64,000 bases of DNA from Rhizomicrobium sp. (GTDB taxonomy: Bacteria > Pseudomonadota > Alphaproteobacteria > Micropepsales > Micropepsaceae). Made by a program: the position numbers and the translations under genes. Shown here one piece after another: positions 2,732 through 38,411 of the stretch (its first letter is position 1; each line of letters opens with the position of its first letter). The notes beneath the pieces are model-generated. The model saw only the letters and a list, made by a program, of their open reading frames with translations. It did not search any database and was not told the origin of the DNA. Location: the NCBI GenBank assembly GCA_035512055.1, contig DATKEP010000064.1:720-64719 (forward strand), given 5' to 3'.

Positions 2732-3400
2732 TCAAGAAAGAGCTTCGATCAGGCTCTGAAACAGCGCACGGCCGTCAGTGCCGCCCAGCGTCTCGTCCAC
2801 CACCCGCTCGGGATGGGGCATCAGCCCCAGCACATTGCGCTTTTCGCTCAGGATACCTGCGATATTGCGGGCCGAGCCGTTCGGGTTTTCGCCCTTGGCA
2901 TAGCGGAAAGCCACGCGGTTCTCGCCTTCCAGCCGATTGAGCGTCTCTTCATCGGCGAAATAGCTGCCCTCGCCATGCGCCACCGGAAAGCTCACGCGCT
3001 GGCCGCTCTCATATTTGCGGGTGAAACCGGACTGGGTCTCTTCCACTTCCAGGCCCACCGGCTTGCAGACGAACTTCAGTCCGGCATTGCGCATCAGCGC
3101 GCCCGGAAGCATGTGGCTTTCGGTCAGGACCTGGAAGCCGTTGCACACGCCAAGCACCATGCCGCCCTTGTCGGCATGGGCCTTGACCGATTTCATCACC
3201 GCCGATTGCGACGCCATGGCGCCGCAGCGCAGGTAATCGCCGTAGGAGAATCCACCCGGCAGCACCACCAGATCGACGTCCGGCAATTCGCTGTCCTGAT
3301 GCCACACCATGTGCGGCGGCGTGCCGGTCATCTGCTCCAGCGCGACCTTGGCGTCGCGGTCGCAGTTGGAAGCGGGGAAGACGATGACGGCTGACTTCAT
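2732..3400 (-). CDS. purQ: Phosphoribosylformylglycinamidine synthase subunit PurQ
   Basis: [35 protein letters not shown]; start placed at ATG 3400 overlapping the purS stop (ATGA). Confidence 0.97.
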
Positions 3401-4400: not shown

Positions 4401-4619
4401 GGCAGTGTTCCTGTCGCCCGTTGAAACCGCAATTTAGGGAGGTGGGGGCTCGGGGGCAATGATTCCCGCCGCGGCATCGGCGCATGGCAGGTTCCCGTCC
4501 ACAGAAATGTTTCAAATCAATAGCTTAGGGCGATTCCAGACGAGACACTTGCCATCGGCCTGGCAGCCGGACTGGACAGGGGGCCCCTTGGTCGTCTTCG
4601 AATGGCGAGAGGAGGGCGA

Positions 4620-6500
4620 ATGACGCGGCATTTGGGCAGGCTTGCAGCGGGCTTGATGTGGCTTTCGGCGCCGGCGTTGGCCGACACTGGCTGGCCGCAA
4701 TATGGCGGCGACCAGGGCGGGCAGCGGCATTCCACCGCAACCCAGATCACGCCCGCAAATGTCGGACAGCTCCATCAGGTCTGGAGTTTTTCGACCGGCG
4801 ACGCCAAGCGCCACGCCCAGGCTCTGAAGGGCTCGTCCTTCGAGAACACGCCCATCCTGGACGAAGGCAAGCTCTTCGTCTGTTCCGCCTTCCAAGAGGT
4901 CATCGCGCTCGACCCGAGCATGGGAAAGCCAATCTGGCGCTTTGACCCGCATGCCCCCGACGATGCCAGACTTTTCTATCCCAATTCCCATGTGTGCCGC
5001 GGTGTGGCCTACTGGAAGGGTCCCGATGGCCGAGGGCGCATTTACCTCGCCGCCAACAATCGCCGGCTTTACGCGCTGGATGCCGCGACCGGCTTACCGA
5101 TCCAAAGCTTCGGCGATCATGGTGCCGCCGTGATCTATGACGGCACGCTTCATCACCAAACCGAGATGGAGTTCACATCCGCGCCCATCGTCAGCCGCGG
5201 GATTATCGTGATCGGCTCGTCGCTGGACGACAATCAGCGGGTGGACGAGCTGCGCGGCACCGTGCGCGCCTTCGACGCCCTGACCGGCGCGCCGAAATGG
5301 AGCTTCGATCCGGTGCAGGGCGCCCATATGCGCGCAGGCGCAGCCAATGCCTGGGCGCCGCTGTCGGCTGACGATGCGCGCGGGCTCGTCTATGTGCCGA
5401 CATCAAGCCCCAGCCCGGATTTCTGGGGCGGCTACCGTACCGGCGACGACCGCTACACCAGCGCCATAGTGGCATTGAAAATCGACACCGGCGAAGTCGT
5501 CTGGTCGTTCCAGACCGTGCATCACAATGTCTGGGATTATGACCTGCCGGCCCAGCCGACACTGGGCACGGTGACGTACAAGGGCCAAACCGCGCCTGCT
5601 TTATTGCAACCGACCAAGCAAGGCCTGCTGTTCACCATCAACCGCGAAACTGGACAGCCGCTGATCCCGGTCGAGGAGCGCGAGGTGCCGCAAGGGGCGG
5701 CGCCGGGCGACAAGCTCTCGCTCACCCAGCCCTTCCCGGTTGCACCGCCGCCGCTGGCGCCCAATCACATCGCACCCGAAGACGCTTTTGGCCTGACATT
5801 CTGGGATCGCGGCAGATGCCGCGACGCCATCCAGGCTGCGCGCCATGACGGGCCCTTCGCGCCGCCCAGCGCCAAAGGGACCTTGGTGTATCCCTTTACC
5901 GGCGGCGGCACCAATTGGGGCGGGCTGTCATTCGATGCCGCGCGCGATATCGTCTTCGTCAACACCTCGAACCTGATCCATGTGGTGACGCTGATTCCGG
6001 CCAAGGATGTTGGCGCGATGCAGGCCGCGCATCCGCATGAGGAGATATCCCGCAATCGCGGCGCGCCCTATGGCATGTGGCGTCGCGTGCTGCTGTCGCC
6101 CTTTGGCATGCCCTGCAATCCGCCGCCCTGGGGCCAGCTGCATGCGGTGGACATGCATAGCGGGCGTATCCTGTGGTCGGTGCCGCTGGGCACGACCGCC
6201 GATTTTGCGCCCTTCAGCCAATATGTGCTGGGCAAGAGCGGCATGCTCAATCTCGGCGGGCCCATTTCCACCGACAGCGGATTGGTCTTCATCGGTGGCA
6301 CGATGGATTATTATTTGCGCGCCTTCGATGCAAAGACTGGCGCGGAGTTGTGGAAAGGGCGCTTGCCGGCGGGCGGCCAGGCCACGCCCATGACCTATTT
6401 GTGGCAGGGCAAGCAGTATGTCGTGATCGCCGCCGGCGGGCACGACAAGGCTGGCACCAAGCGGGGCGATCAGGTGATTGCATTTGCGCTGGGCGGTTAG
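4620..6500 (+). CDS. PQQ-dependent dehydrogenase (glucose/quinate/shikimate family), signal peptide and no N-terminal membrane anchor
   Basis: WPQYGGDQGGQRHS, ENTP, CRGVAYW, HHNVWDYDLPAQP, ATPMTY beta-propeller motifs; start at ATG 4620 after GGAGGG. Confidence 0.9.
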   Translation: MTRHLGRLAAGLMWLSAPALADTGWPQYGGDQGGQRHSTATQITPANVGQLHQVWSFSTGDAKRHAQALKGSSFENTPILDEGKLFVCSAFQEVIALDPSMGKPIWRFDPHAPDDARLFYPNSHVCRGVAYWKGPDGRGRIYLAANNRRLYALDAATGLPIQSFGDHGAAVIYDGTLHHQTEMEFTSAPIVSRGIIVIGSSLDDNQRVDELRGTVRAFDALTGAPKWSFDPVQGAHMRAGAANAWAPLSADDARGLVYVPTSSPSPDFWGGYRTGDDRYTSAIVALKIDTGEVVWSFQTVHHNVWDYDLPAQPTLGTVTYKGQTAPALLQPTKQGLLFTINRETGQPLIPVEEREVPQGAAPGDKLSLTQPFPVAPPPLAPNHIAPEDAFGLTFWDRGRCRDAIQAARHDGPFAPPSAKGTLVYPFTGGGTNWGGLSFDAARDIVFVNTSNLIHVVTLIPAKDVGAMQAAHPHEEISRNRGAPYGMWRRVLLSPFGMPCNPPPWGQLHAVDMHSGRILWSVPLGTTADFAPFSQYVLGKSGMLNLGGPISTDSGLVFIGGTMDYYLRAFDAKTGAELWKGRLPAGGQATPMTYLWQGKQYVVIAAGGHDKAGTKRGDQVIAFALGG

Positions 6501-7798
6501 CCGAAGACTCTCTTGAATATCGTGTCCACCTGCTGCAGGTGATAGCCAAGATCGAACATGGCTTCGAGCTTCGCCGCCGGCAAAGCCTTCGACACATCCG
6601 AGTCACCCTTGAGCAGGTCGAGCAGATTGCCTTCGCCGTTCCAGGCGCGCATGGCATTGCGCTGGACCAGCCGGTAGCTGTCCTCACGCGGCAGGCCAGC
6701 CTGGGTGAGCGCCAACAGCACGCGCTGGCTGTGCACCAGCCCGTGAGTGGCATCGAGATTCTTCTGCATGCGTTCGGGATAAACCACCAGCTTCTCGATC
6801 ACGCCGGTCATGCGCGCCAGCGCGAAGTCCAGCGTGATGGTGGCATCTGGACCGATATAGCGCTCCACCGACGAATGAGAGATGTCGCGCTCATGCCACA
6901 GCGCCACATTCTCCATCGCCGGGATGGCATAGCTCCTCACCATGCGCGCCAGGCCGGTGACATTTTCCGTCAGGACCGGATTGCGCTTATGGGGCATGGC
7001 GGAGGAGCCCTTCTGGCCCGGCGAGAAATATTCCTCGACCTCCAGGACCGCGGTGCGCTGTAAGTGGCGGATCTCGGTTGCCAGACGCTCCAGCGACGAG
7101 GCGACCACGGCCAGCGCGGCAAAATAGGCGGCATGGCGATCGCGCGGGATCACTTGCGTCGAGACCGGTTCGACTTTCAGCCCCATCGCCTTAGCGACAT
7201 GCTCTTCAACGCGCGGATCGATATTGGCGAAAGTGCCCACCGCGCCCGAAATGGCGCAGGTGGCGATTTCCTCCCGCGCCGCGGCCAGACGCGCCCGCGC
7301 GCGGCTGAACTCGGCATAATAAGTGGCGAGCTTGACGCCGAAGGTGGTGGGCTCGGCATGGATGCCATGGCTGCGACCGATGGTCGGCGTCATCTTGTAT
7401 TCGAAGGCGCGCTTCTTGAGCGCGGTCAGCAGTGCGTTTGTATCTTCGATCAACATGTCCACGGCGCGCGCCAGCTGGACGTTGAGGCAGGTGTCCAGCA
7501 CGTCGCTCGAAGTCATGCCCTGGTGCACGAAACGCGCTTCCGGTCCCACGATCTCGGCCAGGTGGGTGAGGAAGGCGATCACGTCATGCATGACCTCGCG
7601 CTCGATCTCGTCGATCCGCGACACGTCGAATTTCGCGTCCTTGCCCTTCTCCCACACCTTCCTGGCGGCCTCTTTGGGCACCACGCCCAGCCCGGCCAGG
7701 GCATCGGTGGCATGCGCCTCGATCTCGAACCAGATGCGGAATTTGGTTTCGGGCGACCAGATTTGAACCATCCGGTCGCGGGCGTAACGGGGAATCAT
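6497..7798 (-). CDS. purB: Adenylosuccinate lyase
   Basis: MIPRY start, HQGMTSSD, GRSHGIHAEP, GSSAMPHKRNP signature. Confidence 0.98.
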   Translation of the reverse strand: MIPRYARDRMVQIWSPETKFRIWFEIEAHATDALAGLGVVPKEAARKVWEKGKDAKFDVSRIDEIEREVMHDVIAFLTHLAEIVGPEARFVHQGMTSSDVLDTCLNVQLARAVDMLIEDTNALLTALKKRAFEYKMTPTIGRSHGIHAEPTTFGVKLATYYAEFSRARARLAAAREEIATCAISGAVGTFANIDPRVEEHVAKAMGLKVEPVSTQVIPRDRHAAYFAALAVVASSLERLATEIRHLQRTAVLEVEEYFSPGQKGSSAMPHKRNPVLTENVTGLARMVRSYAIPAMENVALWHERDISHSSVERYIGPDATITLDFALARMTGVIEKLVVYPERMQKNLDATHGLVHSQRVLLALTQAGLPREDSYRLVQRNAMRAWNGEGNLLDLLKGDSDVSKALPAAKLEAMFDLGYHLQQVDTIFKRVFG

Positions 7799-9718: not shown

Positions 9719-10552
9719 TCAGAGGTAAGGTGGTCTGTGAAGGCCCTTGGGCGAAAGCGTGAAAATTTCCACGCCTGTCTGCGTCACACCCACCGAATGT
9801 TCGAACTGCGCCGACAAGGAACGGTCGCGCGTCACCGCGGTCCAGCCGTCGCTCAGCACCTTCACCCCGAAGCCGCCCAGATTGATCATCGGCTCGATGG
9901 TGAAGAACATGCCGGGCTTGAGCACGATGCCGCCGCCGGGCTTGCCGTAATGCACGATGTTTGGCAGGGCGTGGAACACCTTGCCCAGGCCGTGGCCGCA
10001 AAAGTCGCGCACCACCGCGCATTTCTCCTGGGTCTCGGCAAAGGACTGGATGGCATGGCCAATGTCGCCCGTCGTGGCGCCCGGCTTCACTGCCGCGATG
10101 CCGCGCATCATGGAATCATAGGTGATCTCGACCAGGCGTTCGGCCTTCCGCTTGACCTCGCCCACCGGATACATGCGCGAGGTGTCGCCGTGCCAGCCAT
10201 CCAGGATGACGGTTACGTCGATATTTATGATGTCGCCGTCGCGCAAAGGCTTGTCGTTGGGAATGCCGTGGCAGACCACGTGTTTGATGGAAGTGCAGAC
10301 GGTATGGCGATAGCCGCGATAGCCCAGGCAGGCCGGAAGCGCCCCATGGGCGATGATGTAGTCATACGCGACCTTGTCGAGCGCAGCAGTGGTGCCACCC
10401 GGCTTGACCAGGGGCGCCAGCAGGTCCAGCACATCGGCGGCAAGCCGGCCGGCCCGGCGCATGCCCTCGAAATCGGCCGGATCGTGCAAGGTTATGGTGA
10501 AGTGCGCCTTGCGCGCGGCTTCAAAAGTGTCGGATTGGGCTAAGATGGTCAT
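9719..10552 (-). CDS. map: Type I methionine aminopeptidase
   Basis: [42 protein letters not shown]; start at ATG 10552. Confidence 0.97.
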
Positions 10553-10610
10553 GTTGTGAGGTAATATAGTATCCCCGGGCGATAAAACCAAAGCCCGGTA
10601 ACAGGAATTG

Positions 10611-10878
10611 GAGCATGTTTTTCCTAAGTGAAATCGCCCGCGCCGTAGGGATTTTGCGACGTGGGCAGAAGAAGGGCGAAGGCCGTATCGGGGAATACGG
10701 ACGAGCCCTTCGACGAACCCACGGCATAAAAGACCACGGCCCTTCGGGTTGCCGTCCGGCGGCCGCCCGCGACGTCGCCGCGCTCGACCGTATTGCCGAT
10801 ACGCTCTTCGCGCGGCTCCTGGCGGATCGCCTCGCCGGACGGCAACGCAGGCTATTTGCACTTAAGAAAAGCATGCTC
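10611..10878. repeat. MITE/REPIN-like element with imperfect terminal inverted repeats and two inverted internal hairpin modules
   Basis: Left gagcatgttttttcctaagtgaaat versus reverse complement of right gagcatgcttttcttaagtgcaaat; internal modules homologous to each other and to 15900-15978. Confidence 0.75.
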
Positions 10879-10881
10879 TAA

Positions 10882-11631
10882 ATGCCCAAAACGGCAGCAA
10901 TATTGGCGATCGGGGACGAGATCCTTTCGGGTCGTACCCAGGATACCAACAGCAATACCATCGCGCGGTTCCTGGCCAGCATGGGGATCGACCTGAAAGA
11001 GGTGCGGGTGGTGGGGGATGTGGAGGCGGAAATCGTCCCCGCCCTGAATGCGCTGCGGGATCGGTACGATTTCGTCTTCACCACCGGCGGCATCGGCCCC
11101 ACTCATGACGACATCACCGCTGATGCGGTGGCAAAGGCGTTCGGCCTGGACATCGGCTATCACCCGGAGGCCTATGCCATGCTGGAGGCGCGATATCCGC
11201 CTGGCGAATTCACCGACGCCCGCAAGCGCATGGCGCGCACGCCCCATGGCGCGTCACTGGTGGTCAATACGGTATCCGCCGCGCCGGGATTTCATATCGG
11301 CAATGTCTATGTGCTGGCAGGCGTGCCCAAGGTGATGGCGGCGATGCTGGAAACGATTGCGCTCGAACTGCCGCGCGGCCAGGCCATGACCAGCGTCACG
11401 GTCGAGGCCGACATGCCGGAAGGCAAGATCGCGGCCGGGCTGGCCTCCTTGCAAAAAGATCATCCGGAAATCGCCATCGGCTCCTATCCTTTCTACCGCG
11501 AAGGCGCCGCAAATCCCTTTGGCGCACAACTGGTGATACGGGGGCGCGACGCCGAGGCGGTCGAGCGGGTGGTTGTGGCGCTTGAACGCATGCTGAAGGA
11601 GCTTGGTGCTGCGCCGCGGCGTGTGAATTAG
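10882..11631 (+). CDS. Molybdopterin-binding / CinA-like protein (MoCF domain)
   Basis: IGDEILSGRTQDTN, TTGGIGPTHDDIT, AGVP, IGSYPF. Confidence 0.9.
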   Translation: MPKTAAILAIGDEILSGRTQDTNSNTIARFLASMGIDLKEVRVVGDVEAEIVPALNALRDRYDFVFTTGGIGPTHDDITADAVAKAFGLDIGYHPEAYAMLEARYPPGEFTDARKRMARTPHGASLVVNTVSAAPGFHIGNVYVLAGVPKVMAAMLETIALELPRGQAMTSVTVEADMPEGKIAAGLASLQKDHPEIAIGSYPFYREGAANPFGAQLVIRGRDAEAVERVVVALERMLKELGAAPRRVN

Positions 11632-36610: not shown

Positions 36611-36898
36611 CCGAACTCTTAAGCAGGCCGGTGTCAACATCCTGCCGCCCCAAGCCCCGCCAAACCCTAGGCCAGGGGCAGTTACCAATGGGCCCGAAGG
36701 CTGGGGCTGGCCTTCGGGCTCTTGCTTTAATCGCAAGCCCATCAACACAACCATCGCATGTATTTCTCCCACGCTGCCCCTCTCCGGGTGATTCGGCCCG
36801 GTTCTGCTTATTCAACCATACCACCGCCTAGCTCGGGGTGATTATATACTTGACAAATAACTTGCCCCTAACTAGCTTTGTGATCAAGGAGATTGGTC

Positions 36899-37504
36899 AT
36901 GAGCATTTTAGACGTAACATTCTTTCAAGCCGAAGAAGCGGCATATTCCAAGCTGGAAAGTGTACTTTGGCCCAAGGGCACAGAATGCCCTCATTGTGGC
37001 GTGGTCGGCACTGGCGTGAAGATCAATGCCAACCCCGAAAAGAAGGTCCGCTACGGCCTCTGGAAGTGCGGTGACTGCAAAAAGCAGTTCACGGTGACGG
37101 TGGGCACGGTTTTCGAGTCTAGCCATATCCCGCTGCATAAGTGGCTACAGGCCGCCTATCTGCTCAATTCCAGCAAGAAGGGCATCAGCGCCAAGCAGAT
37201 CGAACGCACCGTGCAGGTCACATACAAATCGGCTTGGTTCATGATGCACCGTTTGCGCGAGGCTATGGCCCCGGCTGGCAAGTTGCCCCCGATGGGCGGC
37301 GAAGGTCGCGTAATCGAAGCCGACGAAACCTTTATGGGCAAGCGCGACGGCAAGCCTTCTGAGCCCGACACATTCGTTTCCGGCTTTGGCTGGGTTGAGC
37401 ATCCCCGCATCGAAACGCAGCGCAAGATTGTCGCCTTGGCGGAACGCGGCGGTTCTGCTCGCTGTTTCGTGGTGGATAGGAACTGCAAGACAGACCACCA
37501 ATGA
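36899..37504 (+). pseudogene. IS1595-family (ISXO2-like) transposase, C-terminally truncated
   Basis: Zn ribbon CPHCG...WKCGDC, QFTVTVGTVFESSHIPLHKWLQA, KGISAKQ, TYKSAWFMMHRLREAM, IEADETFMG; stops at ~200 aa; a KRRSHADLIG remnant near 37546-37575 resembles the usual KRLTY C-terminus. Confidence 0.85.
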
Positions 37505-37599
37505 GCAAATAACGGTCCTGCGACAAACCGCTCTCATCCGTGAAAGCGGCGTAGTCACGCAGACTTGATCGGTCGTTATGAAACGGAAGGCCCACCGAA

Positions 37600-37758
37600 A
37601 TGCCCGTTAGCAAACAGCCCAGAAAAGCGCCACTGGCTAAGGCTAGTCAAATCAGGCGATTCAAGGAGGCCGCACGCGAACTTGAATGCGACGAATCTGA
37701 AAAGGCATTCGACAAGATGCTACGGAAGCTGGCTAAGGCAGAGAAGCCCGCCAAATAA
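37600..37758 (+). CDS. Small (52 aa) ORF following the IS1595 transposase
   Basis: MPVSKQPRKAPLAKASQIRRFKEAARELECDESEKAFDKMLRKLAKAEKPAK; below the ORF-track cutoff; I recall this FKEAARELECDE type downstream of alphaproteobacterial IS1595 transposases (not verified). Confidence 0.65.
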   Translation: MPVSKQPRKAPLAKASQIRRFKEAARELECDESEKAFDKMLRKLAKAEKPAK

Positions 37759-37767
37759 ATGGCCGAG

Positions 37768-37959
37768 TCAGGGCGGTTTGCGGCGGGAAGCCTGGTATCC
37801 AGAAGCCCCCATCAGTGGAGAGGCTTTGGCTAATTCCCTGTAGCCCTCTGCGATGGCCGACCAGCTTTCCTTGAGGTGTTTGCCTTCGGATTGATTGGCT
37901 ATCGCATCGGCCTCTTTGGCCTTGGTCAGATACCATTCTGCCGTGTTGGTCTTGACCAC
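37768..37959 (-). CDS. Small hypothetical passenger protein (63 aa)
   Basis: Amphipathic helical AEWYLTKAKEADAIA...KESWSAIAEGYRELA; lies inside the IS. Confidence 0.55.
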   Translation of the reverse strand: MVKTNTAEWYLTKAKEADAIANQSEGKHLKESWSAIAEGYRELAKASPLMGASGYQASRRKPP

Positions 37960-37971
37960 AGGGGCGCCCGA

Positions 37972-38172
37972 TCACGTGTCCAGCGTCTTCAGCAATTTCT
38001 GCCGTCGGGCGATGATTTCTGCCGCCTCGATCCAAGCCGCATAAGCTTGTGTCTGCCCTCTTTCCTTGTACTTGAGCGCATATTTTCTGGCCTCGACTTC
38101 CGCTTCGATGCCGTATGTGGCGATCATGGACGTGGCCAGAGCCTTCGGGTCGTCGGTCAAATCGCCCCCCAA
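37972..38172 (-). CDS. Small hypothetical passenger protein (66 aa)
   Basis: ALATSMIATYGIEAEVEARKYA...YAAWIEAAEII; tandem with 37768-37959; start uncertain. Confidence 0.55.
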   Translation of the reverse strand: MGGDLTDDPKALATSMIATYGIEAEVEARKYALKYKERGQTQAYAAWIEAAEIIARRQKLLKTLDT

Positions 38173-38411
38173 TGTTTATGCCGTAATCCCCTATCTCTAC
38201 TGGTTCGCTACATCTTGCGACAATTACAAAAAGGAAAGGCCCAGAAGTCTCTCCAACTTCCGGGCCTTCCCATCGATATTCCCCCCAACGGGGTCTGCTG
38301 GGGAGGACCAAATGTTTATAGGAGCCGCATTAACAGGCTCATACCGTCCCGAATCAGAGGGAATTTGCCCCCTATTTGCAAAGTATATAATCGCCTACCT
38401 TGGGGTGATCC

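Follow-up and report, generated by a model that had tools for sequence, protein, structure and literature searches.

What is the 268-bp palindromic segment between the divergent map and cinA-like genes, and how did it come to stand directly before a start codon? The window (the whole stretch of 64,000 nucleotides that was analysed) holds this segment at 10611-10878. The original prediction described it as a REPIN/MITE-like element with two inverted copies of a three-stem module, and proposed either a non-autonomous element recognised by its structure, for example by a HUH/RAYT transposase, or a structured RNA. We examined its parts, its site in relatives, its copies elsewhere and the sequence flanking these copies.

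The element and its site in the map/cinA-like gap

The features of the locus are listed below in order of position.

9719-10552, minus strand: map, methionine aminopeptidase (Peptidase_M24)
10603-10606, plus strand: AGGA, the Shine-Dalgarno sequence that the cinA-like gene had ancestrally, which the insertion leaves 275 nt upstream of the ATG and which is predicted to be unpaired (P = 0.99)
10611-10878, no strand: whole element, probable palindromic MITE, 268 bp, GAGCATG...CATGCTC, bounded by terminal inverted repeats (TIRs)
10611-10633, plus strand: left terminal inverted repeat (detected arm 10608-10633)
10637-10750, plus strand: module A, a long hairpin containing three inner stems, with the conserved loops CAGAAG, GAAGG and CGACG; match to covariance model R1 with 90 bits, E = 1.8e-21; folds as a hairpin
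10738-10851, minus strand: module B, the architecture of module A on the opposite strand with other stem sequences; match to covariance model R1 with 100.9 bits
10740-10748, no strand: small central hairpin CCCTTCGGG at the symmetry axis, where modules A and B overlap
10856-10878, minus strand: right terminal inverted repeat (detected arm 10856-10881)
10879-10880, no strand: TA adjoining the right end; it belongs to TAA and would be one half of the presumed TA duplication; its left counterpart at 10609-10610 is TG
10882-11631, plus strand: cinA-like gene (MoCF_biosynth and FLAD1_M)

The two detected TIR arms (10608-10633 and 10856-10881) were 26 nt long and 85% complementary. Within the 64 kb the TIR word occurred in two places only, both of them element ends, where 0.01-0.02 would be expected by chance. 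Modules A and B, of ~114 nt each, were inverted with respect to each other and overlapped at the central CCCTTCGGG hairpin. Their identity was only 68/118, and the words common to both were CAGRAG, GCGAAGRS, CGTATCGG..AATACGG, CGAGC, and CGACG. The stem AAGGGC/GCCCTT of module A was CCGCGC/GCGCGG in module B, so that the sequences differed while complementarity was kept. The outer stem of module B (10748-10761 with 10833-10846) was complementary at 14/14 positions; in the copy of another genome, L046, it shows C>T compensated by G>A. The window held a single copy of the element, and the covariance model matched only its two modules.

Most of the earlier description of the segment therefore stands. 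TIRs enclose two opposite modules, both of which are full-length covariance-model matches; the anchor words (CAGRAG, GAAGRS, CGTAT/ATACG, CGA, CGACG) are all present, and the stems are indeed replaced by other complementary sequences (AAGGGC/GCCCTT and CCGCGC/GCGCGG). The element was also correctly placed 3 nt ahead of the cinA-like ATG, as it ends at 10878 and the ATG begins at 10882. Two details needed correction. The stems spelled out for module A are present, but they start at 10660 and not at 10651, and the element lies in the map/cinA-like gap without filling it, since 58 nt are left on the map side.

Two ORFs of 88 aa and 117 aa run through the element. Neither matched Pfam, and in the L046 copy a stop interrupts the 88-aa frame after 14 codons; a protein-coding reading was rejected on these grounds. 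In a permissive search of Rfam 15, the best matches scored 13-20 bits against thresholds of 41-168, and the elements in 16 loci gave no match, so the proposed comparison with Rfam yielded no family for the window or for other members. The only gathering-level Rfam matches were unrelated to the element: a sul1 RNA at 3007-3062 of L104 (72 bits) and a whalefall-1 RNA at 6822-6873 of L124 (43.5 bits). No promoter or terminator consensus was found in the element, and a literature search with the core and TIR sequence strings gave no match.

An empty site in relatives, which the original prediction had named as a check, was found repeatedly. Two other Rhizomicrobium spp. loci (L166 and L167, CinA 81% and 80% identical, respectively) kept the map/cinA order with a gap of ~60 bp and no element. 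The junction reads ...aaagcccggttacAGGAtgctgaATG in L166, with the empty-site string including the Shine-Dalgarno sequence as ...acAGGAtgctgaATG, and ...gcctGGAActtgaATG in L167; in the window it reads ...ggtaacAGGAattg[268 bp]taaATG. Soil-metagenome contigs (Logan) of closer relatives skipped 269-271 nt exactly at the element site, where they read AGGATTCTAAATG, AGGTTTCTAAATG or AGGAATCTAAATG. One of them (X4 record 24) had 11 differences in 382 nt compared with the window. The filled allele was present in the source sample X1 at a depth of ~10. Judged by these alignments, 10611-10878 is an insertion. As the empty alleles carry CTAA at this place, the element would have landed at CTAA, a YTAR site, downstream of the AGGA Shine-Dalgarno sequence of the cinA-like gene and ahead of its ATG.

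The spacer of 6-7 nt between the Shine-Dalgarno sequence and the ATG of cinA differed in every empty allele (ATTCTAA, TTTCTAA and AATCTAA in X1, X2 and X4, and likewise in L166 and L167). The region around 10600-10610 of the window is a small hypervariable spot at the translation start.

Copies in other genomes and the fold of the modules

An exact scan for the TIR word, which covered 185,579 species genomes, found two other Rhizomicrobium MAGs, L046 and L023. The L046 copy (1205-1489) was full, 285 bp long and ~90% identical in aligned blocks; it lay in an unrelated operon and exactly filled the space from a stop codon to the ATG of the next gene. L023, from another species, is orthologous to the L046 locus and held a 99-bp internal-deletion derivative at 3257-3355 from which both module cores were lost. 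At another locus, L093 (element at 4449-4713), relatives in runs X30/X31 showed a 34-nt remnant made of 8 nt of the left end and 26 nt of the right TIR, joined with 3-nt microhomology. The 99-bp L023 copy and the 34-nt L093 remnant are decay products of the element.

A scan for the apical hairpin listed at least 118 loci. All but one of the matches listed came from Alphaproteobacteria or alphaproteobacteria-like MAGs, and the exception, in Gordonibacter, was rejected as a chance match. Many Rhizomicrobium MAGs were among the matches listed, with at least 8-10 loci in the richest genomes; the other hosts among them were Xanthobacteraceae, Hyphomicrobiaceae, Kiloniellaceae, Pelagibius, Maricaulaceae, Parvularculaceae, Sphingomonadales, Inquilinus limosus, Mesorhizobium sp. 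LHD-90, and Rhodospirillaceae LM-1. With the window element as query, nhmmer found full-length copies in dozens of the listed loci. At least 44 copies with recognisable TIRs stood at different loci, 41 of them 250-300 bp long, a few of 330-420 bp and one of 99 bp, with TIR complementarity of 19-25 out of 26. The existence of additional copies is thus established, at unrelated loci and across genomes.

In 709 kb the covariance model detected 178 modules, nearly all of them in inverted pairs overlapping at the central hairpin; a model built from family members, as had been suggested, therefore recovers both modules of the window together with these. The same two-module palindrome occurred under quite different terminal repeats in other lineages (GGGTCAAAACTCATTA, AGCCCGCATTTCTCACAC, ACCCGGATTTCTCAAAC, GGCTCTGTGG), and the design with other TIRs was seen in Xanthobacteraceae, Kiloniellaceae, Maricaulaceae, Sphingomonadales, Inquilinus, and Mesorhizobium. 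On plasmids, the module core matched only in Terrarubrum; plasmids of Sinorhizobium, Agrobacterium and Mesorhizobium gave no match to it.

Locus L094 showed a composite arrangement. At the 263-aa ORF of 5688-6479, a solo MITE arm of ~50 nt lay exactly on the TAG stop, and a full MITE followed at ~7435-7704; the two bracket a gene for a 199-aa membrane protein. The bracketed unit at 6477-7704 was 1228 bp long with 46-nt inverted ends and contained no transposase. It was considered as a candidate IS and rejected as a solo arm and a full MITE around the membrane-protein gene.

The whole element gave a predicted RNA fold of −149 kcal/mol (z = −7.1 compared with shuffles) and a DNA fold of −82 kcal/mol (z = −5.7). 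A single strand, DNA or RNA, would by these predictions adopt a four-way 'cloverleaf' formed by the TIR stem, module A, the central hairpin, and module B. From a model-free alignment of 30 diverse modules, RNAalifold predicted three nested inner stems, with compensatory double changes in 11 of 20 pairs; this alignment was not fitted to the model. The alignment of 141 distinct modules was fitted to the model, and covariation counts taken from it lean towards the model: standard pairs filled 94.8% of cells compared with 70.9% in shuffles (0 of 500 shuffles reached this value), both sides had changed in 19 of 20 pairs, and the covariation score was 0.57 compared with 0.15 in shuffles and at most 0.13 in slid registers. 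The covariation described for the three-stem module was thus supported by the 94.8% pairing and by the doubly changed pairs.

The collection scan required a 22-nt apical core, so the apparent invariance of this core is partly by construction. Metagenome copies found independently had CGTAG/CTACG and CGATG/CATCG in place of CGTAT/ATACG, and because of these variants the apical stem can be said to covary too. The outer stem and the TIR arms also retained complementarity across sequence change. The words CAGGAG, GCGAAGAG, TCGAGC, and CGACG were conserved, as were the internal loops, including tandem G-A/A-G adjoining the apical stem.

Several copies carried an extra mini-hairpin of 18-19 nt (GTCGGTAGCGACAGCGTACCGAC or GTCCATAGCGGCCGCGTATGGAC) in the internal loop after CAGG. 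It occupied a constant spot in either module, namely module B of L046 (1405-1428), L054, L079, L111, L118, L127, L150, and L156, and module A of L107 and L121. Such a mini-hairpin resembles either a nested micro-insertion or an expansion segment that is optional.

Flanking TA, gene junctions and mode of movement

TA adjoined 53 of 88 element ends compared with a background of 1.8% (p = 3e-69). Of the remaining 35 ends, 29 were one substitution away from TA, where 35% would be expected (p = 9e-9). A pyrimidine preceded the TA in 23/24 cases and a purine followed it in 27/29, and the target is therefore YTAR. The non-TA ends are what would be given by a TA duplication decaying in a genome of 62% G+C. 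TA on both sides was present in only 12 of 44 copies, and on one side only in 29. Models with a 3-bp (TNA) or a 4-bp (YTAR) duplication were rejected, because the flanks were not direct repeats in those registers.

The window copy itself is flanked by TG...TA. Compared with the empty alleles (AGGAATCTAAATG), a clean TA duplication at this locus needs two further changes in the left flank, and for the locus taken alone a plain 269-nt insertion before CTAA with no duplication fits better. An ancestor with TTAA is nevertheless plausible, since the spacer differs among all three empty alleles. The L093 locus was equally ambiguous on duplication, with an empty allele from a relative that is only ~94% identical.

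TIR subfamilies were lineage-specific, and two of them coexist in one genome (L023 compared with L053/L093). The TIR variants were common to both arms of a copy; this is expected when both ends bind one transposase. TIRs together with a TA duplication within CTAG or YTAR are a mark of IS630/Tc1-mariner and of some IS5-group elements. The element would accordingly be of the kind that is moved in trans by a TA-targeting DDE transposase binding TIRs of 25-30 bp; an IS630/Tc1-mariner-like or IS5/IS427-like enzyme would suit these ends.

The search for such a partner gave negative results. No autonomous IS with matching TIRs was present in the fetched loci (n = 118; TIR pairs 60-4000 bp apart), and a search of the loci for generic inverted repeats spaced 700-2600 bp apart yielded the L094 unit as its one candidate and no partner IS. 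Five TIR types had no match in PLSDB plasmids. A metagenome scan with the window-type TIR returned five more MITE copies, with chance matches for the rest and no IS. ORF clustering of 120 loci (~0.9 Mb) found no recurrent neighbour gene beside the copies. Elsewhere in the window, at 36837-38395, 23-nt inverted repeats (GGTGATTATATACTTGACAAATAACTTGCC...), which are AT-rich for the genome, stand 1.56 kb apart; this pair could be an IS or a regulatory palindrome.

Element ends often met genes closely. By a heuristic gene call, twenty-two ends lay ≤5 nt from a stop codon, and in 15 of these the stop was formed by the flanking TA and the terminal base of the element. Where the element enters the TA of a TAA or TAG stop, the G at each of its ends would re-create TAG. 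Five ends lay ≤5 nt from a start codon. Copies fitted exactly between a stop and the next ATG in operons at L046/L023 and L060/L126, and the Terrarubrum plasmid copy lay between PTS IIB and IIC genes. The excess of one-TA copies is explained by the TA being kept where it serves as a stop codon.

For the cinA mRNA, the predicted probability of being unpaired was 0.02 for the TIR stem and 0.99 for the Shine-Dalgarno AGGA. The AGGA was single-stranded 1 nt ahead of the stem base, and the AUG followed directly after the stem. Formed in the mRNA, the TIR stem would bring the displaced Shine-Dalgarno sequence and the AUG back together and keep the gene translatable. The insertion may be tolerated because of this re-joining.

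Three other readings of these data were weighed. The HUH/RAYT proposal corresponds to a REPIN-like element, in which the inverted modules would be recognised as folded single-stranded DNA by a HUH/Y1 transposase (RAYT or IS200/IS605-type) and the 'TIRs' would be no more than the base of the hairpin. It is in keeping with a pair of inverted, structured modules whose loop words are conserved and whose stems covary, and also with modules more conserved across lineages than the ends, the negative search for a DDE partner in loci, PLSDB plasmids and metagenome matches, the fit of the window locus to insertion next to CTAA without duplication, and the one-sided TA of 29 of 44 copies. However, TA is enriched at both ends and the non-TA ends resemble decayed TA, while the TIRs of 25-30 bp start right at the edge of the insertion and differ between subfamilies. 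A GTAG-type REP head is absent, the modules are ~110 nt and not 20-40 nt long, and clustering revealed no recurrent Y1-like ORF near the copies in ~0.9 Mb. We regard this reading as unlikely; the HUH/RAYT mechanism gives way to the subfamily-specific TIRs, to TA in YTAR with decay, and to the negative result for a recurrent Y1/RAYT-like neighbour gene. A site-specific or other non-DDE recombinase could instead cross over at the TA core of YTAR with no true duplication. It gains from the number of copies with exactly one TA (29 compared with ~21 expected under independent end decay) and from the single YTAR held by the empty alleles of both the window and L093. Stop-codon use explains the retention of TA on one side, however, no gene for such a recombinase was found near the copies, and its mechanism needs no long TIRs, so we give it very little credence.

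The alternative that the segment is first of all a functional structured RNA, be it a cis-regulatory leader, a processing or stability element of the cinA-like mRNA or an sRNA gene, and not a mobile element, draws on the strong covariation with conserved internal loops, on the transcribed location in the window and at operon junctions elsewhere, and on the RNA fold z of −7.1. Against it, the site is empty in close and more distant relatives and copies adjoin unrelated genes. With one module in sense and the other in antisense on either strand, no strand is preferred; the Rfam search gave no family, the scan for a promoter or terminator consensus was negative, and the metatranscriptome run X18 had no contigs on the element. 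We consider it improbable, and a locus-specific structured regulatory RNA, the other half of the original proposal, is rejected by absence from the site in relatives and presence at unrelated sites. The claim of a non-autonomous mobile element, on the other hand, is upheld by multiple copies, relatives with an empty site and the lack of coding capacity. We conclude that 10611-10878 is probably a non-autonomous palindromic MITE, most likely mobilised in trans by a TA-targeting DDE transposase.

One feature is unusual for a DDE-mobilised MITE and sits uneasily with it: across lineages, conservation is stronger in the internal modules than in the TIRs. The module motif consists of three covarying stems, fixed internal loops including tandem G-A pairs and an optional extra hairpin, and it was kept across families while the transposon ends were exchanged. 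Ordinary MITE biology does not explain a fold of ~110 nt that is kept in both halves across families with replaced TIRs. Its conservation could come from a transposition step that reads structure, from a site for a host protein, or from selection that favours a compact, harmless transcript fold and acts against a long perfect palindrome. Recognition of the modules by their structure, in DNA or in RNA, is possible. More tentatively, the ~110-nt module may be a sequence- and structure-specific motif selected in its own right, either as the cis-site of a transposition machinery that reads ssDNA structure or as a mobile RNA module bound by a conserved host factor; we put this forward as a conjecture that is more doubtful than not. 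If it were true, the RNA module could insulate operon junctions by re-joining split Shine-Dalgarno and AUG and by re-creating stop codons.

Meaning of the family and comparison with known repeat systems

The element family is apparently a new, so far undescribed and widespread alphaproteobacterial MITE superfamily with structured modules. A 2024 review of prokaryotic MITEs names only CIR and Rickettsia palindromic elements for Alphaproteobacteria (PMC10969869). The superfamily would thus be added to the Alphaproteobacteria of both soil and sea, and it is unusual in that a covarying internal fold outlives terminal-repeat change, where ordinary MITEs are constrained at their ends only. For annotation, it accounts for 'gaps' of 265-290 bp that soil MAGs show at stop codons and operon junctions, as well as for spurious ORFs running across these gaps. 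The window copy is a natural test case: its 268 nt part a Shine-Dalgarno sequence from its start codon, and yet the gene appears intact. Since it separates the two in this way, structure-mediated bridging from Shine-Dalgarno to AUG is directly testable.

Among known systems, the element resembles MITEs mobilised by IS630/Tc1-mariner elements, such as RUP of S. pneumoniae with IS630-Spn1 and Nezha of cyanobacteria, in its TIRs, TA target, non-autonomy and multiple copies. IS630 itself uses CTAG. For RUP and Nezha a partner IS with matching TIRs is known, whereas none was found for the element here. REPINs are similar in that two hairpin units, inverted to each other, make up a larger hairpin, and in their high copy number and extragenic position. 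REPs, however, are 20-40 nt long with a GTAG-type head, lack long TIRs and TA duplication, and flank a RAYT gene, none of which was seen for the element here. Classification as a REP/REPIN in the defined sense was rejected because of the ~110-nt units, the distinct TIRs of 25-30 bp and the TA-enriched flanks.

CcrM-associated intergenic repeats (CIR) of Caulobacter, Brucella and other Alphaproteobacteria are strictly intergenic, ~110 nt long, conserved between species and terminated by 5'-TA-3', with two-armed predicted structures (PMC2229807). The likeness lies in the alphaproteobacterial hosts, the intergenic position, the ~110-nt unit and the terminal TA. CIR have conserved GANTC sites and no TIRs, whereas the element here has TIRs, and by description the two are set apart. 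GANTC was absent from 10611-10878 and occurred in the elements at 1.7 per kb compared with a background of 1.9 per kb. A CIR repeat was rejected on this lack of enrichment and on the core having no match in rhizobial plasmids.

The enterobacterial ERIC/IRU and YPAL are ancient imperfect palindromes of transcribed intergenic regions with terminal TA, retained at orthologous sites across species and found in variants with internal insertions or deletions (PMC2229807; PMC10969869). The imperfect palindrome, the transcribed intergenic position, the terminal TA and the deletion variants are shared with the element here. ERIC is 127 bp long with short TIRs and has no two-module cloverleaf, and the phylum-level host range and the sequence differ.

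Correia/NEMIS of Neisseria is a non-autonomous palindromic MITE with TIRs of ~25 bp, terminal TA and a TA target duplication; it is often co-transcribed with its neighbours into RNA that folds as long hairpins (PMC2229807 Table 1; PMC10969869). The element here is like it in being a non-autonomous palindromic MITE, in its ~25 bp TIRs and in its terminal TA. Correia is 100-155 bp long, folds as a single plain stem-loop and contains promoters and an IHF site. Unlike Correia, the element here is 265-290 bp long, shares no sequence similarity with it, showed no IHF or promoter motif in a scan, and is built so that each half is a conserved covarying hairpin module.
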